A DNA stretch of 64,000 nucleotides from Promethearchaeota archaeon (GTDB lineage: Archaea > Asgardarchaeota > Lokiarchaeia > Sigyniarchaeales > SOKP01), in the NCBI GenBank assembly GCA_048940445.1, contig JBHLON010000001.1, positions 83,386-147,385 on the forward strand. The letters run 5' to 3'. Position numbers and translations under genes: made by a program. Positions 2,609 through 38,285 of the stretch are shown here, piece by piece (positions within the stretch are counted from its first letter, which is position 1; each line of letters opens with the position of its first letter). A model generated the notes under the pieces. The model did no database searches. It saw nothing but the letters and a program-made list of their open reading frames with translations, and was not told the DNA's origin.

Positions 2609-5572
2609 TTGGGAATAAAGAAGCTTCTATACATGGTTAAAAGTAGAATTAATTTAAAGTTCATTAAACATACTTGGTTAAGCTTAAAAAGAGACAAGAC
2701 CAAAGCGGTGTTTGCTATACTAGGAATTATGATTTCAATTACTCTTTTAACAGCAATAGGTATGGTAAACGATACGATGTCCTATAATTATATGCAGATA
2801 ATAACTAGCAGTACAGGAAATGCCGATATTATGATTTCAAAAAGAGTACAATCAGATATTAGTTATGATCCTTTCTTTGATGAAAATCTTATAGATAATG
2901 ACTTACAAAATATTGAAGGTGTTCAAGAATTCTTTCCTAGAATAATGATGTTTGTGAGAGTATCAGCTAATAACACAAATACAAATGCAACTTTAGAATT
3001 ATATGGTTTAGATTTTTTAAAGGAAGCATATAATGGTCATATGGGAAACTTAGCACTAGTTGATCAATACGGTCTAACAACTGGAAATCTATATTTAGAT
3101 GAACCAAAAGCAGGGGAATGTGTGATCTTATGGAAAGTCGCAGAATTATTAAACGTAACTACAGGCGATTATATTCATCTTGAATACATTCAAAATGAAA
3201 TTGATCTAGAAATTGTAGCAATTTGCAAGCAAGATCTTAAATTTTCGGAATTTGAAAACTCTTTGATACTAGTTAATATTCAGCAAGCACAATCAATTTT
3301 AGATAAACCAAATAGCATTAACTTCATTTATGGAACTTTAAAAAATCCTGAGTCTATATATGACATACGAGATGTAGCAGCCACACAAAGTAAATTAAGG
3401 GTAATTGGAACCAGAATTCAATTACGCTTAGATATCAATGAGTTTTCTGTTGCAATGCCGAAGTTAGAAGAAATTGGAGCGCAAGAATTTATGTTAATCG
3501 CAATGACAGTAATTTTTTGGTTTATCACACTTATTGGAATGTTGATAACTGGTATATTGATTAATTCAATATTATCCACTTCATCTGAAGAAAGACAAAG
3601 AGAATATGGAATTTTGAGAGTTGTTGGAGGGAAAAAGACATTTCCAATTAAAGTGGTGTTATTTGAAGGTGTTTTAATCGGAACAATTGGAGCAATTTTA
3701 GGGATAATAATTGGATTATTACTAACTCCACCAATAGTTAACTTTTTATTTGTTATGACTGGTTTTCGACTTCAAAATGTAGTATATATTATCCAACCTC
3801 AAACTGTACTTCTTGCTTTCGCTATAGGTGCTGGAGGAGCGACGGTTGTTGCATTATTACCCGCTTTTAAAACAGCTAAAATAAATTTAATTAAATCTAT
3901 TACTCCTTTTCGGGCAAAAGAAGAAGGATGGGAAGTTAAGAAGGAAGGGAGTATGAATGTCAAAAGCTTTCTTGTAGGAATCTCAATAGCAACAATTGGT
4001 ATGGTTGTATTTATACTTCTACCAAATATAGTGGTTACTGGTGAATTTATGTTAATTGCTGGTTTATTTATTGGTTTGCTTTGTGCAATTTTAATTGGTC
4101 TAGTATTCGCTTCCGTAGGTATTGTACCGCTAATTCAGCAAATTTTTTTAGGAATAATTAAACCATTTATACGCAAGTATGCTAACATAATTAGTATCTC
4201 ATTAAAACGCAATCGAAGACGAAATACTAGTACAATTGTTATGTTTGCAATTAGTTTTTCATTTATTTTCTTTATCACGAGCGTCACTCAGATGGAATCG
4301 GAAAATACATCTTTAAATTTGCAGTTTCAATATGGTTCAGACCTAGTTATTGTCAATCAAGGATTAGAAGGAGAGCCTAACGCTATAACATTAGAAATGG
4401 CAGAAGAAATAAAGGATCTTCAGGGGGTTGAAGATGTTGCTATTACTTTATTTAACATGTTTGATATTACCTCTGCTATATCACTCATCTACAGCTTTAG
4501 TGAAGGTGGTGGAATGTTTGATGAAGAGTCAATTAATGAAGCATTTCTTAATATCTTTGAGTTCTATAAGGAACAATCAGAAAGAAAGTACAAAGTAGTA
4601 GCTTCAGATATCCCTGAATTTGAACCTCTTGAAGTAGGCTTCATCGGAATTGAAGAAAACTTTATTAATTTGATTGATAAGGACCTAATTATCTGGAATA
4701 GTCCTGGGAGTGGGACAGAATATTCCTATAATCGACTTTTTAGTCATAATGATACTTGCGTCATTTCAGAAGCAATCGCAACAGTTCTTGGCATTAAAGA
4801 AGTAGGAGAAAAAATATTACTTTCGTTCTATGAAAATGAGACTAAGGAAGTCAGAAATCCTTTAATATTTACAGTTTGTGGAATATCTGGTGGAATTCCC
4901 GGTTTCTTTAACTTTAGAAGTTCTGTTTCAATGGCAGAAGGAGGGGGAGTAATGGTTTCTTTGGAGAATTATATTAGATTAATGGGTATAGAAAATCCGG
5001 GAAATCCTGAAATGACTGTAGACAAAATTTTTTTAAGTTTAATCGACAAATCAGAAGAAAGTATTGAACAAACAAAGGAAGATATTCAAGCTTCATACGA
5101 GAATAAAGCCTTTTTCATTGATGATGCTGTTTCGAAAATAAACTTTCTTAGTGATATGTACAAACGACAAAGTACTTTAATGGAAATTATTAATTGGTTT
5201 GCTATTGCAATAGCAATTTTTGGATTAATAAGCTCTATGTATGCTGTTATGCTCGAAAGAAAGTTTGAAATTGGAATTTTAAGATCGCTTGGTATGAAAG
5301 TTAAAAATGTAAGGAATTTATTTTTAATCGAGAGTATGATTTTAATGCTTTCAAGTGGAACTATGGGAACATTAATCGGAACCTTTTGTGCATATATGTT
5401 AGAATCTAATTTGGGATTAATAACAGAGATGCCAATTGTTTTTGATATTCCATTTGACATTTTATTTCGAGTTTACTTTATTTCAATAATTGTTGGCTTT
5501 ATAGGGATGTATATTATACTAATTCGGTTAAGTAGGCAAACAGTAATGGATATATTTAGACAAACCTTCTAA
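2609..5572 (+). CDS. FtsX/MacB-type ABC transporter permease (double FtsX domain)
   Basis: 987 aa. There are two TM blocks separated by large extracytoplasmic domains. Two copies of the FtsX-family loop motif are present: 'ERQREYGILRVVGG' and 'ERKFEIGILRSLGM'. The start is TTG, 4 nt after the SD-like AGGTGA (2599-2604). Confidence 0.85.
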   Translation: MGIKKLLYMVKSRINLKFIKHTWLSLKRDKTKAVFAILGIMISITLLTAIGMVNDTMSYNYMQIITSSTGNADIMISKRVQSDISYDPFFDENLIDNDLQNIEGVQEFFPRIMMFVRVSANNTNTNATLELYGLDFLKEAYNGHMGNLALVDQYGLTTGNLYLDEPKAGECVILWKVAELLNVTTGDYIHLEYIQNEIDLEIVAICKQDLKFSEFENSLILVNIQQAQSILDKPNSINFIYGTLKNPESIYDIRDVAATQSKLRVIGTRIQLRLDINEFSVAMPKLEEIGAQEFMLIAMTVIFWFITLIGMLITGILINSILSTSSEERQREYGILRVVGGKKTFPIKVVLFEGVLIGTIGAILGIIIGLLLTPPIVNFLFVMTGFRLQNVVYIIQPQTVLLAFAIGAGGATVVALLPAFKTAKINLIKSITPFRAKEEGWEVKKEGSMNVKSFLVGISIATIGMVVFILLPNIVVTGEFMLIAGLFIGLLCAILIGLVFASVGIVPLIQQIFLGIIKPFIRKYANIISISLKRNRRRNTSTIVMFAISFSFIFFITSVTQMESENTSLNLQFQYGSDLVIVNQGLEGEPNAITLEMAEEIKDLQGVEDVAITLFNMFDITSAISLIYSFSEGGGMFDEESINEAFLNIFEFYKEQSERKYKVVASDIPEFEPLEVGFIGIEENFINLIDKDLIIWNSPGSGTEYSYNRLFSHNDTCVISEAIATVLGIKEVGEKILLSFYENETKEVRNPLIFTVCGISGGIPGFFNFRSSVSMAEGGGVMVSLENYIRLMGIENPGNPEMTVDKIFLSLIDKSEESIEQTKEDIQASYENKAFFIDDAVSKINFLSDMYKRQSTLMEIINWFAIAIAIFGLISSMYAVMLERKFEIGILRSLGMKVKNVRNLFLIESMILMLSSGTMGTLIGTFCAYMLESNLGLITEMPIVFDIPFDILFRVYFISIIVGFIGMYIILIRLSRQTVMDIFRQTF

Positions 5573-5580
5573 TAGAGCAT

Positions 5581-6165
5581 TTATATACTTCCCAGGAATT
5601 CAATCATTTTTCTCCAAGCTATACCTCTATGAGAAATATGATTCTTTTCTTTAGTTGTTAGTTCAGCAAACGTTTTATTCTGAATTCCATCGGGAATAAA
5701 AATTGGATCGAATCCAAATCCACTAGCACCCTTTATTGACTCCGAAATTTTTCCATTTATCCTTCCCTCAAAAAAGTAGTCTTTACCTAGAGGTTTGAAA
5801 AATAATGCAATAACAGTTAAAAAATGAGCTTCAGTAAGTTCAAAGTTATCAATCAATCGCAAGATTCCTTGATTTCCAATCGTTTTAAAAACATAAGAAG
5901 AATAAACACCAGGGAACCCATTAAGAGGTTTATCAACAAAAAAGCCTGCATCCTCTATAAAACAAGAGCCTTTAACAGATAATTTTACGCTATTTAATTT
6001 AAAAGAGGCATTTTCTTTAATTGAATCTGCTTGAATTTCAGTAGTTTTAACCTTTAACTGTTTTAATACAAAGTTTAACTTCTCACTTTCAAACATTTTA
6101 GAGATTTCATTAAATTTATAATTATTTGTGGTGATAAAATAAATCAGTTTTTCTTCTTTTCCCAT
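5581..6165 (-). CDS. Non-canonical purine NTP pyrophosphatase (HAM1/RdgB/ITPase family)
   Basis: 194 aa. Family motifs 'GFGFDPIF' and 'ISHRG', plus the N-terminal 'FITTNNYKFNE'. Confidence 0.9.
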   Translation of the reverse strand: MGKEEKLIYFITTNNYKFNEISKMFESEKLNFVLKQLKVKTTEIQADSIKENASFKLNSVKLSVKGSCFIEDAGFFVDKPLNGFPGVYSSYVFKTIGNQGILRLIDNFELTEAHFLTVIALFFKPLGKDYFFEGRINGKISESIKGASGFGFDPIFIPDGIQNKTFAELTTKEKNHISHRGIAWRKMIEFLGSI

Positions 6166-7683: not shown

Positions 7684-9414
7684 ATGTCAAATAAAGAGGG
7701 AAATCAGAATAATCCTTATTCATTTGATGATTATCTCTATGTAAGAAATAACTTTAATTATTATCGAGACGATCCATTTCTACAAGCTCTAGTGAAACAT
7801 TATTCTCCTAAAACAGAATATGACACCATTGATCGTGACCTTAACGCTCTCTCTGATTATGTCTCATATAAATGGAGAGATTTAGCTGATAAAGCGGCAG
7901 AACTTGAAAATCGATTGAAGGTTACTAAAATTAAGCATTATGATGCTCATAACCATCGAATAGATAGAATTGAACGCTGTTGGGAAACAGAGACTTTAGA
8001 ACGCGAAATTTTTAGCCTTGGACTTTGGGATCCAAATAGGAATTCTGCTTGGAGTCGCTTCATTAAAATGCTTTTGCTATATGAAAATGGAGAGTTTGGG
8101 GTTATGTGCCCTATTGCCTGTACTCATGGACTTATTTGGATTTTGCAGAAATATGAAAGTGAATTGTCTCCTGAAGCTCATGAGATACTCAATCATTTAA
8201 GAGAAGGAAAAAATGATGAATATGGAAAAGGAGCTCAATTTGTTAGTGAAATCCAAGGAGGTAGTGACGTACCAGCAAATCTTGTTGAAGCTGTATTTGA
8301 AGAGAAAAAAGGTGAAGATGGATTTTCAAATGTTTGGAGAATTTATGGGAAAAAGTTCTTCTGTTCAGCAGCTCATACAGATTATGCTCTTGTTACTGCT
8401 AAACCAAAAAATACCCCTTCCTCGACTCGAATAGCTGCGTTTGTAGTTCCATCATGGCTTCCAGATAATAAAAAGAGTGAAATAAGAAATTCTTATACTA
8501 TAGATCGATTAAAACCAAAATTGGGGACTGCTGAATTACCTACAGCAGAAATTACTTATAATGGAGCAGTTGCATATCCAATTGGTCCTCTCGAAAAGGG
8601 TTTAGCTGATGTAGTAGGTATTGTTCTTTCATTGTCTAGATTGCACGTAGCATTTGGTATGGCAGCAGGAGCCTTGAGAGTAGCAAGAGAAGCAATTTTA
8701 TATACTCAATTTCGAAGCGCGTTTGGAGTACCAATATCATCCTTTCCAATGCTAGTAAATCAAATCAATGAATTAAATCATTTTGCAAAAAGATCTGTTG
8801 CAGGTGTATTTAAAATTTTTTCAGAATTTATTCAATTTGGGGAAGAATTAATTAGCGGGATAAGAGATCTACAAAAAATTGAAAATATCGAAGAACGTAG
8901 GCGTAGATTCCGCTTAAGAGAATTGATTATGCTCCAAAAGATTGTAGTAGCAGATGAATCCCCTAAAATGATTAGAAGAGCAATCTCATTTTTTGGAGGT
9001 CATGGTGTAATAGAAGATTTTCTCTCGTTATCTCGATTTCATAGGGATTCTATGATTATGGAACTCTGGGAAGGTCCTAGATTAGTTTTACTTACTCAAA
9101 TTCATCGAGATTTTCAGAGGGTGAGAGATTGGTATTCACCGGATGAATTTGTTAGAGATCTATTAAAAGGAAGTAATACTGAGTTAATTGAAGATTATGC
9201 CAATAGATTTTCACGAATTATATCCCATGAAAGCTTATTAAGAAATGATGAGAGAACTCTGGAAGTGTGTCAGGAGTGGGAAGATTTTTCAACTAGGCTA
9301 TTCATCGCCTACCAAGAACAAGCTCTTACGGAGATAAATTACAAAGAAAAACCTTTTAAGTTTTCTAAATTATTGCGTCAATTTAAGGAAAGAGAAAAGT
9401 TAAAAGGATACTAA
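7684..9414 (+). CDS. Acyl-CoA dehydrogenase superfamily protein (AidB-like)
   Basis: 576 aa. It has the 'SEIQGGSDV' motif typical of AidB-like ACADs and a long helical C-terminal domain. The assignment is at family level only. Confidence 0.65.
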   Translation: MSNKEGNQNNPYSFDDYLYVRNNFNYYRDDPFLQALVKHYSPKTEYDTIDRDLNALSDYVSYKWRDLADKAAELENRLKVTKIKHYDAHNHRIDRIERCWETETLEREIFSLGLWDPNRNSAWSRFIKMLLLYENGEFGVMCPIACTHGLIWILQKYESELSPEAHEILNHLREGKNDEYGKGAQFVSEIQGGSDVPANLVEAVFEEKKGEDGFSNVWRIYGKKFFCSAAHTDYALVTAKPKNTPSSTRIAAFVVPSWLPDNKKSEIRNSYTIDRLKPKLGTAELPTAEITYNGAVAYPIGPLEKGLADVVGIVLSLSRLHVAFGMAAGALRVAREAILYTQFRSAFGVPISSFPMLVNQINELNHFAKRSVAGVFKIFSEFIQFGEELISGIRDLQKIENIEERRRRFRLRELIMLQKIVVADESPKMIRRAISFFGGHGVIEDFLSLSRFHRDSMIMELWEGPRLVLLTQIHRDFQRVRDWYSPDEFVRDLLKGSNTELIEDYANRFSRIISHESLLRNDERTLEVCQEWEDFSTRLFIAYQEQALTEINYKEKPFKFSKLLRQFKEREKLKGY

Positions 9415-9415
9415 T

Positions 9416-10726
9416 TTATTTTGTTTTTTCATTGTAGAAAGGATTTGTTTTTTTTATTAATTTTCCGTTAGAATCTTGATAAAAAAGTGTATTTGATAAC
9501 AAATTTTCATTTACAAGAGTATGAGCTCCTATAATAGTATCTTCTCCAATAATTTTTCCACACATTATACTTGAATTAATTCCAGTTTGAGAATTAGGAC
9601 CAATAATAGCCCCCAATTTTCTTCTACCTGAATCTATTAATTGATTATTAATTTTCATCTTGATATTTTTGTTGTCAAATCTTAAATTCGATATCTTTGT
9701 CCCAGCACCAAGATTTACCTTTTCACAAATTATTGAATCACCCACATAATTGAAATGAGGAATAGATGTATTCGAAAAGATTATTGAGTTTTTAATTTCT
9801 GACATACCAATATGACAAGAATCTCCAATCGATGAATACGGCCTTATAAATGCGTTTGGTCCTATTAAGCAATTAGTTCCAATAAAGCATGGTCCTTGTA
9901 TATATGTCCCTGAGCGTACCTTAGTTCCTTCTCCAATAAATACATTCTCTGAAATAAAGACATTTTTTTCTGCGTTACCTAAATTTTTTGCCTCTTGTGT
10001 GTCTAATACATGCTTATTAGCTTCTAAAAGCTGCCATGGTAATCCAATATCGTTCCAAAATAAATTTTGAAGATTATATCCATAAATTGTGCCTTTCATC
10101 TCATTGAGAAGAATTTTCATAGAATCAGTAAATTCATATTCTCCTCTAACTGATTTTTTCGTTTTTTCAATCGCTTCAAATATATTAGATTTAAATAAAT
10201 ATATTCCAGCATTCGCTAAATTACCGGCATGTAACTCTTGAGAAGGTTTTTCGATAATGCTTTTTACAAATCCTTTTGAATCAAGTGTAATTACTCCATA
10301 ATTTTGGGGGTCTCCCACTTCAACTAAGGAAATTATTCCATCACATTGAATTGATTTAAAATTTTGAATCAATTGACTAAAAAGATTTGAATCTACTAAG
10401 ATATCTCCATACATAAAAAGGAAGTCATCATTCTTCACAAATTCTCTGGCATAACTAGCAGCATGAGCAGTACCTAGATATACTTCTTGGGTCACATAAT
10501 TTATATCGATATTAAATTTATCCCTACTTTTTCCAAAATAATCTTTAATCATTTCTTCTTTATATCCTACAATTAGCAGGAGTTGGTCTATTCCTGAATC
10601 TATTAAACCCAAAATACTATGTTCTAATATAGGTTTTCCAGCTATAGGTATAAGAGGTTTTGGTCTTGTGGCAGTTATTGGTCTAAGTCTCTTTCCCTTT
10701 CCAGCTGCCAAAATAACAGCTTTCAT
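9416..10726 (-). CDS. Bifunctional sugar-1-phosphate nucleotidyltransferase / acetyltransferase (archaeal GlmU-like)
   Basis: The N-terminus 'MKAVILAAGKGKRLRPITATRPKPLIPIAGKPILEH' is an NTP-transferase signature. The C-terminal half consists of hexapeptide (left-handed beta-helix) repeats. Confidence 0.8.
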   Translation of the reverse strand: MKAVILAAGKGKRLRPITATRPKPLIPIAGKPILEHSILGLIDSGIDQLLLIVGYKEEMIKDYFGKSRDKFNIDINYVTQEVYLGTAHAASYAREFVKNDDFLFMYGDILVDSNLFSQLIQNFKSIQCDGIISLVEVGDPQNYGVITLDSKGFVKSIIEKPSQELHAGNLANAGIYLFKSNIFEAIEKTKKSVRGEYEFTDSMKILLNEMKGTIYGYNLQNLFWNDIGLPWQLLEANKHVLDTQEAKNLGNAEKNVFISENVFIGEGTKVRSGTYIQGPCFIGTNCLIGPNAFIRPYSSIGDSCHIGMSEIKNSIIFSNTSIPHFNYVGDSIICEKVNLGAGTKISNLRFDNKNIKMKINNQLIDSGRRKLGAIIGPNSQTGINSSIMCGKIIGEDTIIGAHTLVNENLLSNTLFYQDSNGKLIKKTNPFYNEKTK

Positions 10727-10757: not shown

Positions 10758-11645
10758 TTAATGATCAAATTCATGAATAATTTCAGTTAAATAATTAATT
10801 AAGGAACGATAAGGTTTAAGATCTCCAGAAAATTCTTGTCTTAAAGCTTCTTCTTCAGAAATTTTATCCTTTAATTGAAGAAAAATATCTTTAATTCTAT
10901 TGAAATCTCCTGAAGCTACAAAATCAAGGGAATAACCATTAATATCTTCAAATAAAATTAACTTTTTATTTCCATTCTCCGCTAAATCATAAAATTGAAT
11001 TTCTTTAATATTCATATTTGCTCTAATTTGAGTATTCATTGCTATGGTAGCCAATCGAGCTGATAAATTTGAACTAAATAAATCAATATTTTCGTGAGTC
11101 ACTTCACGACGAAGATCATTTAAAAGAGTAGTATCATATAACTGAGAGATAATGGGCAATCCTTGAGCAGAGATACCGCAATAAATTATTTTATTTTCAA
11201 TTTGAGCATAAGAATTATCTAGCTTTTCATCTTCAAGAGGAAAACGGTACTTCTCCCATAAGTATGCTGTAATTAATTTTATAATCTTTGAAAACTCTGA
11301 TTTTTTTGAATACTCATTATATTTATTTGGATTATTGTAATTTGCGATTACCTTTTCATAAAACTCATTTAACATGTTGTCTGCAGCCTCAGAATTAGAT
11401 AAAAAATCACCAGTTATACAGTAAAACAGATTTTGGAAAGCATCATTGATTTCATGTTTAATAATCATACGTTCCCTTCCTTCCTTCCCCTCAAAAAAGA
11501 TATTTTTTAGACGCCAGACATTTTTGGGATTGATACTTCGAATTAATTTCTCTACAAAAAGTACAATTTCAAAAACTGGATATTTATATTCATTCGAAAT
11601 GTAGAGAATTTCATCATCTAAAATAATAGCAAATCCAGTAATCAT
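10758..11645 (-). CDS. Two-domain longin-like + roadblock/LC7-like protein
   Basis: 295 aa. The N-terminus 'MITGFAIILDDEILYISNE...LFYCITGDFLSNSEAADNMLNEFYEKV' follows the longin-domain pattern. The C-terminal half 'IIYCGISAQGLPIISQ...LILFEDINGYSLDFVASGDF' looks roadblock/MglB-like. This is a by-eye call. Confidence 0.5.
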   Translation of the reverse strand: MITGFAIILDDEILYISNEYKYPVFEIVLFVEKLIRSINPKNVWRLKNIFFEGKEGRERMIIKHEINDAFQNLFYCITGDFLSNSEAADNMLNEFYEKVIANYNNPNKYNEYSKKSEFSKIIKLITAYLWEKYRFPLEDEKLDNSYAQIENKIIYCGISAQGLPIISQLYDTTLLNDLRREVTHENIDLFSSNLSARLATIAMNTQIRANMNIKEIQFYDLAENGNKKLILFEDINGYSLDFVASGDFNRIKDIFLQLKDKISEEEALRQEFSGDLKPYRSLINYLTEIIHEFDH

Positions 11646-14941: not shown

Positions 14942-15748
14942 TTAATTTAATAGTGCTCTAATTTTACTAACAATCTTATGTAAATAAAATTCAGCTATCC
15001 CAAATTTAGTTTTAGAATCAAATATCAAAATAATTAGATAATTTTCATTAAAGTATTCTGAAAAGATAAGCTCGTTGTCTTTGGAAGTATAAAACATTTT
15101 TAAAATAGAATTATTATAGATTTTAATCCTGAAATCTATTTCTTTCAATGCCTTTTTTAATGATCTTTTGTCTTTCGTAGTAGAATAAAGTATTTTTCCT
15201 CCATTAGTCAAAAAGATAATTTCACTAATTTCATCACTCAATTGAATAGTTTTTATATATTTGATCACTTTATCTTCTTTTTCTAAATTGTATTCCTTGC
15301 TTGAAATTTCTTTAATAACGTGTTTTATATCATCATCTAATTGGTTATCGTAAATGTATTCTAGCTCTGTTCTAATCTGATTTTTTTTAACATATTTCAT
15401 GAATTTTATATTTATACGGTTTATGATTCTCTTAAGTATAATCGAATTCTCGTTAATATCACATAATAGAGCATAAAAAAGTGTAGCTTTCTCAAAAATA
15501 ACAAGCTTTATTCCTCCACCCATTTCCAAATTTTTTATCTTGTTTCCAATTAATTCTTTTGTAAAAGACATAAGAGCTGTAAAATAAGAAGATATTAATT
15601 GTTCTTGTTCTAATCTAAAAACATCTGTAAAATTAATTCCATAAATGCAAATTCCTGACCTATTAAAGATAAGTAAATTATGAATACTATAAATTTCCGA
15701 TGATCTTTTAATTTTTGAGATAAATGGAGAGTTCTCCTGTATTGTCAT
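14942..15748 (-). CDS. Tandem longin (sybindin/TRAPP Bet5-like) + roadblock-like protein
   Basis: 268 aa. 'IHNLLIFNRSGICIYGINF...LISSYFTALMSFTKEL...IKLVIFEKATLFYALLCD' resembles the TRAPPC1/Bet5 and sigma-adaptin longin-fold N-termini. A second alpha/beta module is 'IIFLTNGGKILYST...YLIILIFDSKTKFG'. Confidence 0.5.
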   Translation of the reverse strand: MTIQENSPFISKIKRSSEIYSIHNLLIFNRSGICIYGINFTDVFRLEQEQLISSYFTALMSFTKELIGNKIKNLEMGGGIKLVIFEKATLFYALLCDINENSIILKRIINRINIKFMKYVKKNQIRTELEYIYDNQLDDDIKHVIKEISSKEYNLEKEDKVIKYIKTIQLSDEISEIIFLTNGGKILYSTTKDKRSLKKALKEIDFRIKIYNNSILKMFYTSKDNELIFSEYFNENYLIILIFDSKTKFGIAEFYLHKIVSKIRALLN

Positions 15749-16212: not shown

Positions 16213-16410
16213 ATGGCTAAAAAACCTGCACAAGATACTCTTTTCGTGAAAAGCAAAGTAAAGGAATACATCAAAGGTAAGGGCTGCAATACCGCATCAG
16301 AAGTCCTCGATGGAAAAAAATTGAATGCCATCTTACTTGATTTATTAGATAAGGCTGTCGAACGCGCTAAGGCAAATAATAGAAAGACTGTTCAAGAGAG
16401 AGATCTTTAA
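16213..16410 (+). CDS. Small histone-fold-like protein (DUF1931-like; alpha1-L1-alpha2-L2, no alpha3)
   Basis: 65 aa. 'KSKVKEYIKGKGCNTASEVLDGKKLNAILLDLLDKAVERAKANNRKTVQERDL' aligns by eye with archaeal histone 'IGRIIK...ARHAGRKTIKAEDI', but it ends right after the RKT-x-x-x-D loop. It has a strong SD. Confidence 0.6.
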   Translation: MAKKPAQDTLFVKSKVKEYIKGKGCNTASEVLDGKKLNAILLDLLDKAVERAKANNRKTVQERDL

Positions 16411-18172: not shown

Positions 18173-18724
18173 TTAATCTTTTTTTAATTCTTTATCCACT
18201 ATAAAAAAACCTATTGATAAAACACTTCTCAATCTCTGTAAATCGTCCTTTAATTTTTTTACACGTTGATAGGGCCCTGAAACGGCTAAAATCTCTAAAC
18301 ATTTTTCATATTCTAAATGAACATGCAGAGTAGAAATAATAATATCATTAAAATGATGTTGAATATCAGTTTTTAAGATCTCATCAGTTTGGTAAGTACT
18401 AGCATAGATAGGTCGTGAACCAAAATCATGAGTATGATGTGATTCATCGTGGTCAATCACATGAGAATGATCATGTAAATCGTGATCTTTTTCATCATCT
18501 TGGTTAGTATTTTTTTGCTCAAAATGTTTGTGTATCATGACTATTGAAATACAACCAACTACATTTCCAGAAATTATAGGAATGTTTTCTTCGGCCACCA
18601 TCAAAGCTTTCATGGCTTTTCTAATAGCATCAGACCTAGATATATTGATAGCCTCTCTAAAGGTTTCAAATTCTTCATAAAGATCTCTAGGGAGAGAGAC
18701 TGTGAATCGTTTATATTCTTCCAT
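18173..18724 (-). CDS. nikR: NikR-type nickel-responsive regulator (ribbon-helix-helix + C-terminal metal-binding domain) with a His/Asp-rich insert
   Basis: RHH N-terminus 'KRFTVSLPRDLYEEFETFREAINISRSDAIRKAM'. His-rich 'HDLHDHSHVIDHDESHHTHDF'. C-terminus 'HVHLEYEKCLEILAVSG'. Confidence 0.75.
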   Translation of the reverse strand: MEEYKRFTVSLPRDLYEEFETFREAINISRSDAIRKAMKALMVAEENIPIISGNVVGCISIVMIHKHFEQKNTNQDDEKDHDLHDHSHVIDHDESHHTHDFGSRPIYASTYQTDEILKTDIQHHFNDIIISTLHVHLEYEKCLEILAVSGPYQRVKKLKDDLQRLRSVLSIGFFIVDKELKKD

Positions 18725-18757: not shown

Positions 18758-19492
18758 TTATTTCTTTATAACAATCGCAATTGGAACCGATGCTTCACGC
18801 CATTGTGCTATCTTACCTGAATATTCTAAGTCTAATTTTACACGTCCATGGTCTCCGAGGATAATCATTAAAGAGTTAGGTCTCAATTGCTTATAGTTGC
18901 TTAAAATCCATTTATCTGTGCGAAGTATCAACTTCTCAATCAAATCTTCAGGTGTTCTTTGCTTCAAAGCCTGTTGTTGTTTATGGAGATTTTCAAAATC
19001 TAGATAGTGCATTAAAGAAATATCAAAATTATTAATAGTTTTGGCACTCTCAATCCAAGTCGCCATATCTGTTTCTTTAGGAACTGAAAGTGTTCCAGCA
19101 GCATATCGTTCCACATCTTTTTTTCTACCAATTAAACATGACTTTTTTCCTTTTTCATTAAGATATCGTAATAGATGAAAATGGTTGGGTTCCATAGTAA
19201 AACCCCCATAAAATATTTGGTGAAGTACTCCTAATGTATATGGATTTTTAGTAGATAACAACAACATCATTTCAGATTGGCGTATCATAAATTCGGGTTT
19301 ATGATAAGTAATTTCAAAAAGACCAAAATTATCAATAATGTTAATACTAATTCTTTCAACACCGTGATAAGCCTCAATCATAGAATCTACAGGTTCTGGA
19401 ATGATATCAAGGGGGGGATCAATATCAAGTAATTTTAAAAAGGTAGCCGGTAATTGGTTTAAATAGCATTTAATTGTTTGAAGTTCACTCAT
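18758..19492 (-). CDS. Hypothetical protein, possibly alkaline-phosphatase-superfamily-like
   Basis: 244 aa. It has a C-terminal 'MIILGDHGR' (an xDHG motif of the AP/nucleotide pyrophosphatase superfamily). The N-terminal catalytic motifs are not clear. Confidence 0.3.
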   Translation of the reverse strand: MSELQTIKCYLNQLPATFLKLLDIDPPLDIIPEPVDSMIEAYHGVERISINIIDNFGLFEITYHKPEFMIRQSEMMLLLSTKNPYTLGVLHQIFYGGFTMEPNHFHLLRYLNEKGKKSCLIGRKKDVERYAAGTLSVPKETDMATWIESAKTINNFDISLMHYLDFENLHKQQQALKQRTPEDLIEKLILRTDKWILSNYKQLRPNSLMIILGDHGRVKLDLEYSGKIAQWREASVPIAIVIKK

Positions 19493-19654: not shown

Positions 19655-20950
19655 ATGAAAATATTATATATTGATACCTCTAATTCTGGAATTTCTGGAG
19701 ATATGTTCTTAGCTTCCTTATTAGATATAATACCTAATCCTAAGGAATTATTAGATGAGTTAAAACTAATAAAGAACTATGCTAAAGGAGTGAAAAAACT
19801 TGAAATTGCTTGGGAAAAAGTTAAAAGAACAGGAATTATGGTTAATCACCTTAAAGTGGAGATTGAAGAAAATAAAAATGAAAGATCATCTAAGAACCTA
19901 AAAGAATCCTTACAAGCATTTTTAGATGAAAGAAAGTATTCTGAATTAGCAAAAAAGTATGCTATTAAAGTTTTAGAATCATTATTTCAAGCAGAAGCAG
20001 AGGTTCATGATTCTTTAATAAAAGATATTCATCTGCATGAATTAAGTTCAGTAGACACATTAATTGATATTTTAGGAGTTTCAAAAGCTCTAGATATATT
20101 AGGATGTTTTAGCGAGAGTTTTGAGATATACTGTAGTAAAATTCCATTAGGAGCTGGCAAAATCAAGACTGCTCATGGAATATTAGCTATTCCAGCCCCT
20201 GCCACGATAAAAATATTAGAAAATTCCAAGTTAATAACTGAATCTGGTCCTATAGAGAGTGAATTAGTTACTCCAACTGGTGCAGCTTTATTAGTTAATC
20301 TGAACCCAAAATTCTTAAGATATTCTGATGAAATGGAACTTAAAAAGGTAGCATATAGCACAGGGGATAAAGAGTTTAAAAGATTCTCAAATATCTTAAG
20401 AATTTTCTATGGCAAAGGTCCTGATATTAACATTCAATCAAATCAAATTTCTTTGAAAAAATATGTAGAAGACATAACTGTTATAGAAACTGATGTCGAT
20501 GATGTGTCTGGAGAGCTACTGGGAAATTTAATTAAATGCTTGGAAAATAAACAAATTCTTGATATTCAAGTTATTCCAAGCATCACTAAAAAAAATAGAC
20601 CAAGTCACATTGTTAAAGTATTATGTCATCCTGAAAACAGATTTGAAATAATAAAAACTCTGATAGACGAATTAGGAACTCTTGGCGTAAGATTTAATAC
20701 TATAAAAAGGGTTTGTATAGATAGAAAGATAATTAATTCAGAATTGCAAATTCTTGATAAGATTTACCAAGTTTCCTTCAAGATAGCTTATTATGAAACT
20801 GAAAATAAAAAAAAAATTGTTAACATTAAACCAGAATATGATGATCTTAAAAAAATTAGTTCTGAAACAGGAATATCATTAAAAGAAATTCTTACTTATG
20901 CGCAAGAGAAGTTAAAAAGATTAGCAGATGAATTTGAAATTAAATTCTAA
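19655..20950 (+). CDS. larC: LarC-type nickel insertion protein (DUF111; nickel-pincer nucleotide cofactor biosynthesis)
   Basis: 'MKILYIDTSNSGISGDMFLASLLD' is the hallmark DUF111/LarC N-terminus. Also 'HLHELSSVDTLIDILG'. Confidence 0.85.
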   Translation: MKILYIDTSNSGISGDMFLASLLDIIPNPKELLDELKLIKNYAKGVKKLEIAWEKVKRTGIMVNHLKVEIEENKNERSSKNLKESLQAFLDERKYSELAKKYAIKVLESLFQAEAEVHDSLIKDIHLHELSSVDTLIDILGVSKALDILGCFSESFEIYCSKIPLGAGKIKTAHGILAIPAPATIKILENSKLITESGPIESELVTPTGAALLVNLNPKFLRYSDEMELKKVAYSTGDKEFKRFSNILRIFYGKGPDINIQSNQISLKKYVEDITVIETDVDDVSGELLGNLIKCLENKQILDIQVIPSITKKNRPSHIVKVLCHPENRFEIIKTLIDELGTLGVRFNTIKRVCIDRKIINSELQILDKIYQVSFKIAYYETENKKKIVNIKPEYDDLKKISSETGISLKEILTYAQEKLKRLADEFEIKF

Positions 20951-31060: not shown

Positions 31061-31924
31061 TTAATCTTTTAAATCAAATATTATTTCAACTGAACTGACA
31101 ATCCCCAACTTACGGGCAAATCTTCTAATATATTGAATCCTATGTTTTTTAATTACATCTGAGACAATCAAAGTTGGAATAAAAGGAAGGATCATAAAAA
31201 AAGGGAACGGAATGAAAATTGCCAATAAAATGGAAAATAAACTTGTAAAACTAGCCGTTTCTACTAAAAAGATAGTAATAAATTCAAAATAGGAGAATAT
31301 TACTGATACACCAGCGTAACCTTTTAGAAATTGCCCATACCATCTCCCTATAGAACGAACCTCAGGTGGATTAATTGTTTTATCTAATTTATTTCTATTA
31401 GAATAGATTATACCAGAATCACTTAAAAACCATGTAGTAGAGAAAAGTATTGTTGCAAGAAAAAAAGTTAGTACTAATAATACTACAAAGGTAGTAGCAT
31501 AATCTGCTTGAGTAGTCGGTATGCTCCCTCTTGAGAAGGTGACAATTTCAGGAGTAAGTAAAAATAATGAGAAATTAATAGCCATTAATGCAGAAAATAA
31601 ACCAGAAGAAAAATATTTAAATTTGGGAAATTCTGGTCTATTGAAAAGTCCATATTCCATTTTGGTTTTAAAGATTTTTTTATGGATATAAAGAAAAAAC
31701 GGTGAAAATCCATATCCACCAACAAATAAACCAATTAAAGAAGATACGGGTAATATGATTATAGAAAGTAATCCTGTTTCTAATCCCATATCAGAAATTG
31801 GAATTAATTTAGTTAAATCATCGGTTCTTCCAATAATTAAAGAAAAAGTAATAGAGATCCCAATCCAAAATAAGCAATAAAATAAAAAGAACAATAAAGC
31901 TCGTTTATATTTCCCAATTTTCAT
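31061..31924 (-). CDS. Polytopic membrane protein, unknown family, translationally coupled to the upstream small GTPase
   Basis: 287 aa with multiple TM helices. Its ATG (31922-31924) is 1 nt from the GTPase stop codon (31926-31928). Confidence 0.6.
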   Translation of the reverse strand: MKIGKYKRALLFFLFYCLFWIGISITFSLIIGRTDDLTKLIPISDMGLETGLLSIIILPVSSLIGLFVGGYGFSPFFLYIHKKIFKTKMEYGLFNRPEFPKFKYFSSGLFSALMAINFSLFLLTPEIVTFSRGSIPTTQADYATTFVVLLVLTFFLATILFSTTWFLSDSGIIYSNRNKLDKTINPPEVRSIGRWYGQFLKGYAGVSVIFSYFEFITIFLVETASFTSLFSILLAIFIPFPFFMILPFIPTLIVSDVIKKHRIQYIRRFARKLGIVSSVEIIFDLKD

Positions 31925-31925
31925 A

Positions 31926-32444
31926 TTATTTTACCATAATTCTACTAATTATATCAAATACTATATCTATATTTTCTCCAGTTTTGGAAGAACACTCTAA
32001 ATATTCTAAGAAATTATTTTCATTGGTAAAATTTTTAGCTTCTTCCTGGGAGATTGTTCTATTCTCCATAAGATCTAATTTACCACCAACTAAGACTTTA
32101 GGAACTTCTTGATTATGAGTTTGATTTGAATTATCAAACACCGTTAGCCAATCTGTTAAATTTTTAAAAGTATTATATCGGGTAAGATCATACATAAAGA
32201 TAGCCCCATGTGTGCCTACTAGAGTGCTAGATAATAAAAATCTGAACTTATCTTCACCTGCAAAATCCCATATATGAAGAGCAATCTTATTACCATTCAA
32301 ATGTAGTTTCTTTACATAAAAATCCATGCCTAATGTTAATTTGTATGACTCTTTAAAAACACCAGAAAGATATCGATGCGTTAGAGTAGTCTTTCCAACA
32401 GCAGAATCCCCTAAAATGCAGACCTTATACTGATTATCTTCCAT
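31926..32444 (-). CDS. Rab/Ras-like small GTPase (Asgard-type), no C-terminal lipidation motif
   Basis: G1 'GDSAVGKT'; switch I 'TLGMDF'; G3 'WDFAGED'; G4 'GGKLD'; G5 'CSSKTG'. 172 aa, ending '...RIMVK'. Confidence 0.85.
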   Translation of the reverse strand: MEDNQYKVCILGDSAVGKTTLTHRYLSGVFKESYKLTLGMDFYVKKLHLNGNKIALHIWDFAGEDKFRFLLSSTLVGTHGAIFMYDLTRYNTFKNLTDWLTVFDNSNQTHNQEVPKVLVGGKLDLMENRTISQEEAKNFTNENNFLEYLECSSKTGENIDIVFDIISRIMVK

Positions 32445-35321: not shown

Positions 35322-35948
35322 TTAATCTCTCGATTTTAATTTATTGAGTTCTTCTTCTAATTCCTTAATCTTACCATCGGGTTCTACAGAGGGTAATGCT
35401 CCCCCTACTTCAGCTCCAATTTCTGCATCTATTTCACCTAAAACATCCTTAACATCAGTATCAGTAACTGCAGTATCAATCATTAAATCATTTATTCCAT
35501 CAGTAGTTATTTCTTCCGTAACATTAAAGTCTTCGATATCTACTCCAATTTGAGTCATAAGTTCGGTAATTTGTGGAATTGATAATGAATTTTTTAGCGC
35601 ACCAAGACTCATTGCTATTCCTCTCATAATTTCAGCAACATCTTTTACAGCACTAGCTTGTTCCAACTTAAAGACCATACCTTCAAGGTTTGTCCTGAAT
35701 AGGTCTATTGCTCTTGCTTGTTTCTTAACTTGTAAGTAGTTACGAGCGTGAAATTCCGAACCCTGCATATCACCAGCTTTTCGAAGATTGACAGCTTTGT
35801 CCCTTGCAAGTTTTGCTGACATCTCCATTTTTTTTGTTTGCCTCATTAATCGTTTGTTAAAAACTTTTAATTTTACGGTCGCAGATCGTACAGTATCCTT
35901 TTTACGACCTCCGGATAACCAACCCGAAAGATCTTTCAAAAATCCCAT
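35322..35948 (-). CDS. ESCRT-III (Snf7/CHMP family; Vps2/24/46-like)
   Basis: 208 aa. The N-terminal half is a basic helical hairpin ('KLKVFNKRLMRQTKKMEMSAKLARDKAVNLRKAG...'). The C-terminal half is acidic. The terminal 'IKELEEELNKLKSR' has MIM1-like Leu spacing. The gene is divergent from vps4. Confidence 0.85.
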   Translation of the reverse strand: MGFLKDLSGWLSGGRKKDTVRSATVKLKVFNKRLMRQTKKMEMSAKLARDKAVNLRKAGDMQGSEFHARNYLQVKKQARAIDLFRTNLEGMVFKLEQASAVKDVAEIMRGIAMSLGALKNSLSIPQITELMTQIGVDIEDFNVTEEITTDGINDLMIDTAVTDTDVKDVLGEIDAEIGAEVGGALPSVEPDGKIKELEEELNKLKSRD

Positions 35949-36163
35949 TTTTCATCAACTTTTAGTTAATTTATATAATATAAAAAAATTCGAGATTATA
36001 TAATTTTTTGTAGACCAATAATTAAGATGATAAATCTCGAGGAGACATCATACCAAAAAGAAAATTTGTATTAACTTTTTTTAATGTTTAATAAAAGTGA
36101 AGATTGGTATTAGATTAATTTAAATAACAATTGAAATATTATAAAATAAAATAAGCTAAAAAT

Positions 36164-36180
36164 AAGAGGTTTTAATTATC
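36164..36180 (+). promoter_or_regulatory. Shine-Dalgarno (AAGAGGT) plus in-frame near-cognate start candidates ATT (36175) / ATC (36178) for vps4
   Basis: GAGGT at 36166-36170 immediately follows the in-frame stop TAA (36163-36165). ATT and ATC lie 4 and 7 nt downstream, in the Vps4 frame. Confidence 0.45.
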
Positions 36181-37395
36181 TCATCAGTAGACTCAAAACT
36201 ATATCAATATGCAGTCCAAGAAGCTCAAGCTGCTGTAAATTTAGATGAAAAAGGTCATTTACACCAAGCAATGAATAAGTACTTTAGAGCAGCAGAAATA
36301 CTTATTCAATTTATTAAGTATAATAAAAATCCAATTATGATCAGAAAGTGTAAAGATCAAATTGAACAATACATGACTAGGGCTCAAGTTCTTAAAGAGC
36401 ATCTAAGTGGTCCAAGAGCTAGGAGGCCACATCCAAAGGCAACTCCTAGTGAACCACATGAAGGAGAACCAAATGCAGAGGAAGGAAGTCTATCAGCTGA
36501 GGAGCAGGAACTCATGGACTCTATTTCAGACACAATCTTAACAGAATCCCCTAATGTTAAGTGGAACGAAATCGCAGGTCTAAGCGATTGTAAGCAAGCA
36601 GTAAGAGAAGCTATTGTATTACCAATCATGAAACCGGATTTATTTACAGGTGCAAGAAAACCATGGTCGGGAATATTGTTATTTGGACCTCCTGGATGCG
36701 GAAAAACATTATTAGCAAAAGCGGCTGCCACGGAATGTAAAGCGACATTTTTTAGTGTCTCATCAGCAGATTTATTAAGCAAATGGTTAGGTGAAAGTGA
36801 AAAATTAATCTCATCGCTTTTTAAGTTAGCCCGAACAAGAGCACCAAGCCTAATTTTTATGGACGAAATTGATTCCGTAACCACGACTAGAGGTAGTGGA
36901 CATGAAGGAGGAGGAGAGAGAAGAGTCAAAACTCAGTTATTACAAGAAATTCAAGGCGTTAAATCAACTCATGATAAGCCAATGCTTGTGCTGGGAGCTA
37001 CAAACCGACCTTGGGATATTGATATAGCAATGTTAAGCAGATTTGAAAAGAAAGTATACGTGCCACTTCCAGATCAACCAGCAAGAGCAGGTATTTTTAA
37101 GATTCATACTTCAGGAGTTAATTCTGCCTTAACAGAAGAAGATTATATTGAATTAGCAGTTCGTACTGAGTCTTATTCTGGTAGAGACATATCAAATATT
37201 TGCCGTGAAGTCATTATGATTCCTGTAAGAGAATTAGATATGGGTGGGTTACTGGAAGATCCGGAAAAAGAAGTTGTTGTGAGAGATATAAACCTAAAAG
37301 ATTTTTTAAAGACTATAAAGAAAGTAAAGCCAATGATGACTAAGGCTGAATTGAAGAAATATCAAGTATGGGCAGAGGAATTCGGAGAATTTTAG
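36178..37395 (+). CDS. vps4: Vps4 AAA+ ATPase (MIT domain + AAA + Vps4 C-terminal helix)
   Basis: Walker A 'GPPGCGKT', Walker B 'LIFMDEID', 'ATNRPWDID' and 'LSRFEKKVYVPLP'. The MIT helices 'LYQYAVQEAQAAVNLDEKG / HLHQAMNKYFRAAEILIQFIKY / IMIRKCKDQIEQYMTRAQVLKEHL' start upstream of the first ATG (36271, the conservative start). The proposed start is ATC 36178 or ATT 36175. Confidence 0.9.
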   Translation: MSSVDSKLYQYAVQEAQAAVNLDEKGHLHQAMNKYFRAAEILIQFIKYNKNPIMIRKCKDQIEQYMTRAQVLKEHLSGPRARRPHPKATPSEPHEGEPNAEEGSLSAEEQELMDSISDTILTESPNVKWNEIAGLSDCKQAVREAIVLPIMKPDLFTGARKPWSGILLFGPPGCGKTLLAKAAATECKATFFSVSSADLLSKWLGESEKLISSLFKLARTRAPSLIFMDEIDSVTTTRGSGHEGGGERRVKTQLLQEIQGVKSTHDKPMLVLGATNRPWDIDIAMLSRFEKKVYVPLPDQPARAGIFKIHTSGVNSALTEEDYIELAVRTESYSGRDISNICREVIMIPVRELDMGGLLEDPEKEVVVRDINLKDFLKTIKKVKPMMTKAELKKYQVWAEEFGEF

Positions 37396-37396
37396 G

Positions 37397-38281
37397 ATGG
37401 AGAAACAAAGAGAAAAACCAAAAGAAATTCCAAAAAAAGTTGAAGAAAAAGCAACAATAGATCTAGATGAATTAAGAAAGGAGTTAGCACGATTAAAAGA
37501 ACTGAAGAAACAAAGAGAGTCAGAGAAGCCTCCGGAAGACATTGTTAAGGAAGAAGAAGTTATTGAAAAACCAATTTCAGAAAACATTGGAACTCGGTTA
37601 GATAGAATTGAGGATTTCTTGACAAGTAAACTTGGTGATGTAGATTTAGAAGCATATAAGCAACATTCTGCTCAAATAGAAAAAGAACTTAAAAGCATAG
37701 AACAAGAATTAGTAGGTGAAGAAGGTGTTATAGCTAAAGAGATCTCTACCTACGAATTACTACTCAATGATTATCCTTGGCTTGAAGAAAAAAGATATGT
37801 ATTCATGTATTCTATCCCTAATAAAAAAAATAATCTTAAAGATTTCGAATCATGGAAGAATGAATGGTCAAAGGTACTTTTTGATTATGCAAGATATGCA
37901 ATTCTTCACATTTTATATTTAAGAAAATTAGAATCGGAGAAGCCATTCTCTAAATTTGAAAACAGAAATACAGCTTTAGAAATAATTGCGCAGGAATTAG
38001 TCGATAGAAACCAGGCAGAATGGCTTACAAAAAGCAAAGAGAAATTAAGAATATATTGGAAAACTCTTGACAATTGGGCAGAGGAAATTTATGAATGGGC
38101 CATGGAAATATCACCTCTAGAACCCATTTTGATATTTGAAATAAGAGAATCTAATAGAGCTTTCAGTACATTACCAAAAGAGGATTTGCTTGAAATTTTC
38201 AAAAGACTTGAGAAAAATGAACGTGGAAGGATTATTAAGTCAGAGGATGGCCAAATATCTTTCAAAATAAAGGTAGAATAG
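37397..38281 (+). CDS. vps25: ESCRT-II Vps25-like protein with a ~110-aa charged N-terminal extension
   Basis: 'NQAEWLTKSKEKLRIYWKTLDNWAEEIYEWA' compares with human VPS25 'GNLEWLDKSKSSFLIMWRRPEEWGKLIYQWV' (recalled from memory). The C-terminus '...RIIKSEDGQISFKIK' compares with '...AEIITVSDGRGVKFF'. The ATG is 1 nt after the vps4 stop. Confidence 0.8.
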   Translation: MEKQREKPKEIPKKVEEKATIDLDELRKELARLKELKKQRESEKPPEDIVKEEEVIEKPISENIGTRLDRIEDFLTSKLGDVDLEAYKQHSAQIEKELKSIEQELVGEEGVIAKEISTYELLLNDYPWLEEKRYVFMYSIPNKKNNLKDFESWKNEWSKVLFDYARYAILHILYLRKLESEKPFSKFENRNTALEIIAQELVDRNQAEWLTKSKEKLRIYWKTLDNWAEEIYEWAMEISPLEPILIFEIRESNRAFSTLPKEDLLEIFKRLEKNERGRIIKSEDGQISFKIKVE

Positions 38282-38285
38282 ATTT

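Follow-up and report, generated by a model that had tools for sequence, protein, structure and literature searches.

A conserved two-domain gene

The window analysed here is a stretch of 64,000 nucleotides (G+C ~29%) of contig JBHLON010000001.1 from a Promethearchaeota archaeon, a member of a phylum placed within the Asgard kingdom Promethearchaeati (NCBI taxonomy). Its reverse strand carries a gene for a protein of 268 residues in which a longin domain is followed by a Roadblock/LC7-type domain (Table 1). The gene had been picked out by an original prediction made from the letters of the DNA alone, and the open reading frame (ORF), its ATG start and the peptide strings quoted in that prediction are all present. 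The protein is an exact match to ACFFBH_00430, a hypothetical protein of a Promethearchaeota metagenome-assembled genome at NCBI; an NCBIfam search gave no match. Clustered at 90% identity, its relatives fall into 123 groups, almost all with proteins of 266–271 residues, and they are encoded in at least 97 species-representative Asgard genomes, mostly of Promethearchaeota (Lokiarchaeota). In an alignment of 51 members the mean column identity is 63%, and conservation reaches into the N-terminal 20 residues. Because a length of about 268 residues is kept in at least 97 genomes and the N-terminal 20 residues are conserved, this is a genuine gene under selection and its start is correct. Taken as a whole, the best explanation of the data is that the gene product is probably a soluble two-domain member of the Asgard longin/roadblock expansion. 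One orthologue-bearing contig (L043, DATKTW010000149.1) is labelled 'Candidatus Nanopelagicaceae bacterium', which almost certainly reflects mis-binning of an Asgard contig.

Table 1 Features of the 268-residue protein and of its candidate partner, with positions in the window
Feature	Position	Strand	Basis or remark
268-residue Longin–Roadblock protein, complete ORF with stop	14942..15748	-	ATG start; 123 homologue clusters, 97 species-level genomes
N-terminal extension, residues 1-20, predicted disordered, basic motif S11-K12-I13-K14-R15	15689..15748	-	pLDDT ~37
Canonical longin domain, residues 21-151, ββαβββαα	15296..15688	-	AlphaFold2, Pfam and PDB profile matches
β1-loop-β2 motif IHNLLIFNRSGICIY, residues 22-36	15641..15685	-	resembles TRAPPC1/Bet5/Trs23 N-termini
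α1 helix region EQEQLISSYFTALMSFTKELIG, residues 47-68, strongly conserved	15545..15610	-	aligns to α1 of Bet5 and of the first longin domain of Mon1
Roadblock/LC7-type domain, residues 152-268, αββαβββα	14945..15295	-	AlphaFold2, domain profile against PDB, Foldseek
Most conserved roadblock motif EIDFRIKIYNNSILKMFYTSK, residues 203-223, end of α1, loop and β3	15080..15142	-	alignment of 51 members
295-residue candidate partner, ββαβββαα + αββαβββα(+α)	10758..11645	-	AlphaFold2 pLDDT 89.5, pTM 0.88

The AlphaFold2 model of the protein, built on the family alignment, is of medium confidence (predicted local distance difference test, pLDDT, 73.4; predicted template modelling score, pTM, 0.53). 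In the longin domain the model places strands at residues 22–28, 34–39, 71–76, 80–87 and 90–97 and helices at 52–66, 102–122 and 135–151, giving a five-stranded antiparallel sheet in the order ββαβββα(α) without an N-terminal helix. The roadblock domain is modelled with helices at 155–167, 194–211 and 249–267 and strands at 174–181, 186–189, 218–223, 226–233 and 237–244. Both topologies match the canonical longin and roadblock definitions given in the Mon1-Ccz1 and CPLANE structure papers.

The longin domain is conserved to the same degree as the roadblock domain, and conservation across the family peaks in α1 and β3 of both domains, represented by EQEQLISSYFTALMSFTKELIG and 'DFRxKIxNNSILKxFYTSK'. 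Invariant residues are H23, G32 and C34 in the β1-loop-β2 motif, L51, S53, A58 and F62 in the α1 region, and F206, R207, K209, I210, N212, N213, I215, F219 and Y220 in the roadblock motif, the loop of which (residues 212–216) has low pLDDT. By comparison with the Mon1-Ccz1 and TRAPP literature, the α1 region would be the expected face for dimerization and GTPase contact, and the roadblock motif may form a dimer or partner interface. Within the N-terminal extension the basic motif is well kept among the 51 members (K12 in 45, I13 in 43, K14 in 47 and R15 in 48); the extension is missing in remote relatives, whose starts correspond to about residue 20, and its basic peptide could conceivably bind a membrane or a partner.

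Identity of the longin and roadblock domains

Taken singly, the window protein gives weak matches. Its scores against Pfam (Fuz_longin_1, 16.5 bits, E=0.0098; Sybindin, 14.3 bits, E=0.043) are both below threshold, and phmmer found nothing among PDB sequences. Across the 51 members, Pfam matches are to Sybindin (37, best E-value 7.2e-5), Fuz_longin_1 (19), MAPKK1_Int (7), Robl_LC7 (2) and Longin (2). When ten members were scored individually against the gathering cut-offs, that of Fuz_longin_1 (26.1 bits) was passed by three of them, at 28.5, 26.9 and 26.2 bits, with a match spanning residues 24–127 and profile positions 2–101 of 125, and that of Sybindin (PF04099, 25 bits) by none (maximum 21.2 bits). 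Where both families match, Fuz_longin_1 outscores Sybindin in every member tested but P0117. Searching PDB with the family profile returned a single match, to TRAPPC1 (2j3t_C), over the 20-residue β1-β2 motif, where TVHNLYLFDRNGVCLHYSEW aligns with 'nihnlfifnksGiCiyklnl'. The TRAPPC1 motif named in the original prediction is therefore genuine, and with E=1 this match is not significant when taken alone.

The signal becomes clear at the level of the superfamily. When 1.84 billion representative proteins were scanned with HMMER, 310 matched at E<=1e-3, and those among them that carry a name are all Asgard. A diverse 45-sequence alignment of N-terminal domains drawn from these matches provided a longin superfamily profile. 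Against PDB, this profile matches Bet5 best (7ea3_D, E=1.4e-5, 28.4 bits, profile positions 2–102 of 113; 3cue_C, 9.3e-5), followed by the first longin domain of Drosophila Mon1 (1.8e-4; MON1A, 2e-3), Trs23 (4.4e-4), AP-3 σ (5.7e-4), AP-3 μ (4.5e-3), TRAPPC1 (5e-3) and AP-2 σ (8.5e-3); the dynein roadblock reaches merely 0.22. The AP sigma matches are confined to the C-terminal half of the domain, and there are also partial matches to a VAMP7-like longin and to SRX. The superfamily consensus clears the Pfam cut-offs for Fuz_longin_1 (39.4 bits), Longin (31.9), Sybindin (27.7) and Clat_adaptor_s (22.7). Because the PDB profile matches cover the full domain and the consensus stands above the Pfam longin cut-offs, the N-terminal domain is a bona fide eukaryote-type longin. 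By these profile comparisons it is closest to longins of guanine nucleotide exchange factors (GEFs), the first domain of Mon1 or Fuzzy and Bet5 being roughly tied. The Bet5 likeness that had been predicted is thus significant in the register proposed and extends over the whole domain. The label sybindin-like holds in so far as this longin has significant sybindin affinity, and it is too narrow, given the higher consensus score for Fuz_longin_1.

A further set of Pfam matches, to DDRGK, occurs in 21 of the 51 members (best 3.1e-5; approximately residues 132–215). These matches map onto the linker helices and the β1–β2 hairpin of the roadblock domain, LLTDRGKVIYSS, and probably reflect a local resemblance of helix and hairpin to the winged helix of DDRGK, by analogy rather than homology.

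Does the longin make this protein a subunit of a TRAPP-like complex? On one hypothesis its longin domain would be homologous to Bet5/TRAPPC1 and would act in a TRAPP-like exchange complex alongside Bet3/V4R-type proteins. The protein shares with the sybindins TRAPPC1/Bet5 and TRAPPC4/Trs23 (PDB 2j3t, 3cue, 7ea3) the 'HNLxIFxxxGxC' pattern of the β1-loop-β2 motif and the register of α1 and β3–β5. The leading position of Bet5 in the PDB search, the matches to Trs23 and TRAPPC1, the frequency of Sybindin among the 51 members and the consensus score all point the same way, as does an MK-D1 longin that was modelled as most similar to TRAPPC1 (Tran et al. 2024). However, each of the ten members scored individually stays below the Sybindin cut-off, with Fuz_longin_1 ahead except in P0117, and TRAPPC1 ranks under tri-longin chains, sigma-adaptins and roadblocks in the structural comparison described below. 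Sybindins are single-domain (or PDZ-inserted) proteins found among Bet3-type subunits, whereas the Asgard longin is fused to a roadblock domain; sybindins are not known to have such a fusion. Moreover, the Bet3/V4R-type partner that had been suggested did not appear: no V4R-, Bet3- or MetOD1-like gene was found in the window or in 80 species-level orthologous loci (±8 kb).

A V4R-superfamily gene is instead found with distant paralogues. Three of these (L008:4740-6768, L091:1489-3783 and L093:185-2280) belong to a recurring operon that contains a Robl_LC7 gene and a MetOD1/V4R-superfamily gene and ends with the Longin-Roadblock gene. A small unknown protein of 127–150 residues precedes the last gene in two of the three operons, and in L091 the final two genes overlap. 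The MetOD1/V4R-superfamily protein has 150–161 residues and a conserved CPF…C.YT.GL…C pattern; it matches Pfam MetOD1 at 31.5 bits, above the cut-off, and V4R at E=1e-3, MetOD1 being related to V4R (Galperin et al.), and a search of PDB sequences with it found nothing. The three Longin-Roadblock proteins are mutually 23–26% identical and the operon is therefore old. It is possible that it constitutes a TRAPP-like module of Bet3-type and longin proteins, which lends the TRAPP hypothesis some support from outside the strict orthologue group. For the window protein, a role as TRAPP-type sybindin subunit nevertheless seems quite unlikely. The gene contexts of two other relatives held nothing relevant.

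The identity of the C-terminal domain was examined with a profile of a 34-sequence alignment. Against PDB this profile matches MK-D1 Roadblock3 (9jue_D, 2.4e-6) and MglB (1.2e-3 to 2.2e-3), each over its full length, and dynein roadblock light chains from 8e-3. Foldseek adds roadblock-type matches to 7f8m, 9jue, 6h5b and 5y3a (Thor and MK-D1 roadblocks, MglB and LAMTOR) with TM-scores of ~0.6–0.7 on the target. Comparison of the longin profile with the roadblock profile by hhalign finds a marginal relationship (probability 49%), as is expected for a longin and a roadblock. With the αββαβββα topology, the domain is an ordinary prokaryotic-type roadblock by fold and similarity, and Pfam Robl_LC7 itself is matched in just two of the 51 members. 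The second roadblock/longin-like module of the original prediction is accordingly real. The prediction was also to fall if matches were confined to ordinary roadblock/MglB proteins; this describes the C-terminal domain, and the N-terminal domain has specific affinity for eukaryote-type longins. Known Roadblock/LC7 proteins (MglB, MK-D1 Roadblock3 9jue, Thor-RB 7f8m, LAMTOR2/3, dynein LC7) stand alone, with ~100–160 residues, as homo- or heterodimers, whereas this roadblock makes up the second half of a fusion with a longin and has an invariant motif peculiar to the family, 'DFRxKIxNNxI'.

The MglB likeness raises a second hypothesis, in which a roadblock dimer acts as GTPase-activating protein (GAP), or as GEF, for an MglA- or Arf-like GTPase and the longin is an accessory. 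Full-length profile matches and Foldseek values of ~1e-4 to MglB are consistent with it, and in the most divergent orthologue (L003, 44% identity) an Arf-family GTPase of 227 residues (9216-9899) with an MglA-like 'ATLYFD' switch region is encoded 100 nt upstream on the same strand. That case is a single instance, however: a genetic pairing of the MglA type is not seen at the 80 orthologous loci, none of which has a small GTPase within ±8 kb (phmmer; P-loop/NKxD regular expression). The equal conservation of the two domains also argues against an accessory longin. We consider the MglB-like role very unlikely. A remote relative (L009) has a Gtr1/RagA-type GTPase of 314 residues (4896-5840) directly upstream on the same strand, and L003 and L009 both have more Ras/Arf GTPases within 6–10 kb. 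These GTPases, like the paralogue operons, are functional hints that come from outside the strict orthologue group.

Comparison with tri-longin exchange factors and a syntenic candidate partner

In tri-longin domain (TLD) subunits, the first longin domain (LD1) is a canonical longin, the second (LD2) a roadblock and the third (LD3) of lamtor type with a helix αX contributed by the LD1–LD2 linker. Two subunits are joined through LD1-LD1 and LD3-LD3 contacts, the LD1 pair is the active site, and this pair by itself is sufficient for exchange activity. The longin→roadblock order of the Asgard protein is collinear with LD1–LD2 of these Rab-GEF subunits. Foldseek against PDB is headed by Drosophila and human Mon1 (4e-7), with other Mon1 chains to 1e-5 over ~265–290 columns, followed by Fuzzy-Inturned and BLOC-3 (HPS1/4) chains at ~3e-5 to 6e-5; below these come σ-adaptins (6e-5), the Thor roadblock (8e-5), ζ-COP, MglB and the TRAPPII chain 7e8t_E (~1e-4) and TRAPPC1 (2.4e-4). 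The identity of the Mon1 chains 8c7g_C, 8jbe_C, 9l0d_A and 9lol_B was confirmed by sequence search with the longin profile. A structural search had been proposed as a check of the TRAPP affinity; the best whole-protein matches are thus Mon1, Fuzzy and HPS1/4 rather than TRAPPC1. The high rank of TLD subunits is partly a trivial effect of aligning two domains rather than one.

Set against the TLD subunits Mon1, Fuzzy and HPS1 (Pfam Fuz_longin_1-3; PDB 8c7g, 9lol, 7qla, 9rs9, 8zwc), the Asgard protein is alike in the order and topology of LD1 and LD2, in having Fuz_longin_1 as its top Pfam family, in its significant match to LD1 of Mon1 and in its near full-length Foldseek alignment. Its first domain scores as a Fuz_longin_1-type longin in the consensus and in three of ten orthologues, and by the topology of residues 155–267 a roadblock-type second domain comes straight after it. 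It is unlike them in size (two domains and ~270 residues, against more than 400), and the chain ends at residue 268 after the roadblock, with neither LD3 nor αX. Among longer relatives (290–437 residues), no third longin or roadblock domain is recognisable, their C-terminal parts being unrecognised or unrelated. Two of these have fusions of their own: P0387 (425 residues) joins an N-terminal longin to a prenyltransferase α-α toroid domain, which is intriguing given Rab prenylation in eukaryotes, and P0388 (437 residues) joins one to a TrmB-like winged helix and a C1 zinc finger. Finally, TLD subunits are known as GEF heterodimers acting on Rabs with a Y-K/R motif in switch I, and the Asgard protein is known here from sequence and predicted structure.

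TLD subunits are obligate heterodimers, and this is echoed by a protein of 295 residues with like topology that is encoded nearby. The original prediction, which called the 268-residue protein the second of a tandem pair, had implied such a neighbour, and the confident model of the 295-residue protein (Table 1) does contain two such modules. It belongs to an Asgard-only family of its own with 326 clusters, for which Pfam and PDB sequence searches gave nothing meaningful and no Intu_longin signal. Foldseek matches of its model are weak, led by 7q3e_B (1.5e-4; chain identity unverified), Mon1 (3.9e-3) and BLOC-3 (7e-3), with PAS/LOV matches of low probability further down. The two families have no sequence likeness by BLASTP or hhalign (probability 0.8%), and these results rule out recent duplication or direct paralogy of the two proteins.

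Sufficient sequence is available at 57 loci, and in 52 of them a member of the 295-residue family follows downstream in the same orientation, at a median gap of 3.3 kb. In a mirror-tree comparison of 55 loci, the pair gives the highest correlation (r=0.917) of ten pairs from five linked genes, the others lying at 0.65–0.84, and also the highest partial correlation (0.62, against 0.43 or less). This signal is suggestive of coupling, and the 295-residue protein would be the most plausible dimer partner.

Could the two proteins together form an early version of a tri-longin GEF? In that hypothesis the 268-residue protein would correspond to a subunit of the Mon1/Fuzzy/HPS1 type with LD1 and LD2 only, the 295-residue protein its Ccz1/Inturned/HPS4-type counterpart, and the LD1–LD1 heterodimer would remodel switch I of a Rab-like GTPase, making the pair an ancestor or sister of TLD GEFs. 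The ββαβββαα + αββαβββα topology, Fuz_longin_1 as best Pfam family, Mon1 at the top of Foldseek with a significant LD1 sequence match, and the sufficiency of an LD1–LD1 core for GEF activity would all fit, as would a syntenic, co-varying protein of the same topology whose top PDB matches are also TLD chains. A Rab-like GTPase of the window has F30…Y34-K35 spaced as F33…Y37-K38 of Ypt7. On the other hand, LD3 and αX are absent. Foldseek would match any longin followed by a roadblock to LD1–LD2 in collinear fashion, so part of the rank is an effect of length. Bet5 at least equals Mon1 in the PDB profile search, and the roadblock domain has no Fuz_longin_2 match. The TLD matches of the 295-residue protein are weak, with one below 1e-3 and that one the unverified chain, and this protein lacks an Intu_longin signal; nor is there any GTPase linkage in the orthologous loci. 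The hypothesis of a proto-tri-longin heterodimeric GEF is attractive and weakly supported, and we consider it unlikely.

The Rab-like GTPase in question (31926-32444, reverse strand, 172 residues) scores 151 bits against Pfam Ras. It has 'WDFAGED', with Glu for the catalytic Gln, and 'GGKLD' replacing NKxD; its switch I reads F30…Y34-K35-x-T-x-G-x-D-F, a spacing that corresponds to the Ypt7 residues F33/Y37/K38 exploited by tri-longin GEFs. Directly after it (31061-31924, reverse strand) comes a multi-pass membrane protein of 287 residues with no Pfam match.

A putative platform for small GTPases and its genomic setting

What, then, would the protein do? The characterised close relatives of both domains (Bet5/Trs23, LD1 of Mon1-Ccz1, MglB and the LAMTORs) are dimeric platforms for small GTPases, and because this holds for all of them, we consider it most likely, with better than even confidence, that the 268-residue protein also acts as a dimeric GTPase-regulatory platform. 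In this model the α1/β3 edges of the two domains would mediate dimerisation into a flat platform. A Ras-superfamily small GTPase would dock on the longin pair, and the platform would control the nucleotide state or the location of that GTPase. The conserved α1 and β3 stretches may correspond to the dimer and GTPase-binding faces of the relatives. With the 295-residue protein as partner, the result would be a heterodimer with pseudo-symmetry, similar to Mon1–Ccz1 in its LD1–LD2 layers.

Two observations speak for a GEF-like rather than a GAP role: the β1-β2 loop has neither a conserved arginine nor a GP motif, and the nearest longins are GEF subunits. The GAP alternative would be a longin of the FLCN/SMCR8/NPRL2 type, with its arginine finger located between β1 and β2. 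An Asgard longin class with GP motif and arginine finger exists (PMC12290439), and the window protein has R30. Across the 51 members, however, lysine (33 members) is commoner than arginine (13) at position 30, with E in three and N and S in one each; the loop reads N-x-S-G with no Pro and no GP motif, and there are no Pfam FLCN or NPRL2 matches. With the arginine not conserved, a finger of this type is effectively refuted, and the GAP reading is almost certainly wrong.

Several observations weigh against the platform or against its likeness to tri-longin GEFs. The nearest GTPase in the window is 16 kb from the gene, and none lies within ±8 kb of it at the 80 orthologous loci. The window protein itself lies under the Pfam thresholds, and the model is only of medium quality. 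TM-scores to Mon1 are low (0.27–0.36, rmsd, the root-mean-square deviation, ~15 Å), so the likeness to Mon1 is one of fold and domain order and not of rigid-body arrangement. Neither the profile nor the consensus of the roadblock domain gives a signal for LD2 of tri-longin proteins in PDB or for Fuz_longin_2 in Pfam. The mirror-tree correlation comes without a valid p-value and could mirror similar evolutionary rates. Finally, the linkage of the two genes need not be functional, as the whole gene block is syntenic.

This block recurs in relatives as Ham1, S15, S3Ae, NTP-transferase, the 295-residue protein, SIR2, radical SAM, rubrerythrin and the 268-residue protein, often with a GHMP kinase. 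In the window, the neighbours are of a housekeeping kind, with rubrerythrin downstream of the 268-residue gene and radical SAM and SIR2 genes between it and the 295-residue gene; a ceramidase-like gene and a 65-residue ORF of histone-fold-like type lie upstream. Such neighbours, together with the missing GTPase linkage, would also suit a protein that does not regulate GTPases at all and uses its profilin/PAS-like fold as a scaffold or structural part or for ligand sensing, for instance as a coat component resembling adaptor small chains, an SRX-like module or a SNARE-like regulator. The partial matches to AP sigma/mu, the VAMP7-like longin and SRX and the PAS/LOV matches of the 295-residue model can be cited in its favour. 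Still, the AP sigma matches cover half of the domain, the PAS/LOV matches have low probability, and every characterised close relative is a GTPase platform. A role apart from GTPases is distinctly improbable, and the dimeric GTPase platform is retained as the preferred reading.

How new is such a protein? Lokiarchaeum is reported to have ~41 longin and 38 roadblock domains, Asgard fusions of longin or roadblock domains with GTPases are already in the literature, FLCN/SMCR8-type Asgard longins have been described (PMC12290439), and Liu et al. list 130 Roadblock/LC7-superfamily Asgard clusters of orthologous genes 'including longins, sybindin and profilins'. The novelty claimed at the outset is therefore weakened, with Asgard longins and sybindin already catalogued (Liu et al.) and a TRAPPC1-like MK-D1 longin already modelled (Tran et al. 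2024). The 268-residue group comes from the same organisms and superfamily as the catalogued eukaryotic signature proteins with longin or roadblock domains (Klinger 2016; Liu et al.; Tran et al. 2024) and is a well-delimited addition to that class. In the Lokiarchaeote 'Roadblock-Longin protein' 8yqg the two domains come in reverse order, and the family profiles do not match it. In the literature on Asgard together with tri-longin, Mon1/Ccz1 or roadblock-longin, no account was found that treats this group, its LD1–LD2 collinearity or its syntenic counterpart, nor any paper connecting Asgard proteins with tri-longin GEFs.

Eukaryotic regulators of Rab, Rag and Arf GTPases, namely TRAPP, Mon1–Ccz1, Ragulator, GATOR1 and FLCN, are built around longin/roadblock platforms. 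Asgard archaea have such domains in abundance, but hardly any has a known partner or can be tied to a particular eukaryotic descendant. The 268-residue group is conserved and easy to express, has the LD1–LD2 order and comes with a syntenic candidate partner, which makes it a testable pair for the question of whether heterodimeric longin GEFs predate eukaryotes. If it is a generic longin/roadblock scaffold, it would be just one further annotated family on a long list. In the most far-reaching version, the two proteins would be a Mon1–Ccz1-like 'di-longin' ancestor of the tri-longin Rab-GEFs that activates the F…Y-K Rab-like GTPase, and the paralogue operon would be a TRAPP-like module. TRAPP-type and Mon1-type longin GEFs would then have diverged before eukaryogenesis; this version would come as a surprise.

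Other features of the region are recorded here. The 65-residue ORF (16213-16410, forward strand) has weak DUF1931/histone-fold likeness and is kept close to the upstream end of the Longin-Roadblock gene in three of the loci (L001, L003 and L006). A conserved block beside the locus in relatives comprises a NikR-like regulator (18173-18724, reverse strand), a protein of 244 residues of unknown type (18758-19492, reverse strand) and a LarC-type nickel-insertion protein (19655-20950, forward strand). Lastly, the window contains an Asgard ESCRT cluster (35322-39014), which marks the source as a Loki-type Asgard archaeon and is made up of Snf7/ESCRT-III (35322-35948, reverse strand), Vps4 (36271-37395, forward strand), an ESCRT-II Vps25-like protein (37397-38281, forward strand) and an EAP30/Vps22-36-like protein (38286-39014, reverse strand).

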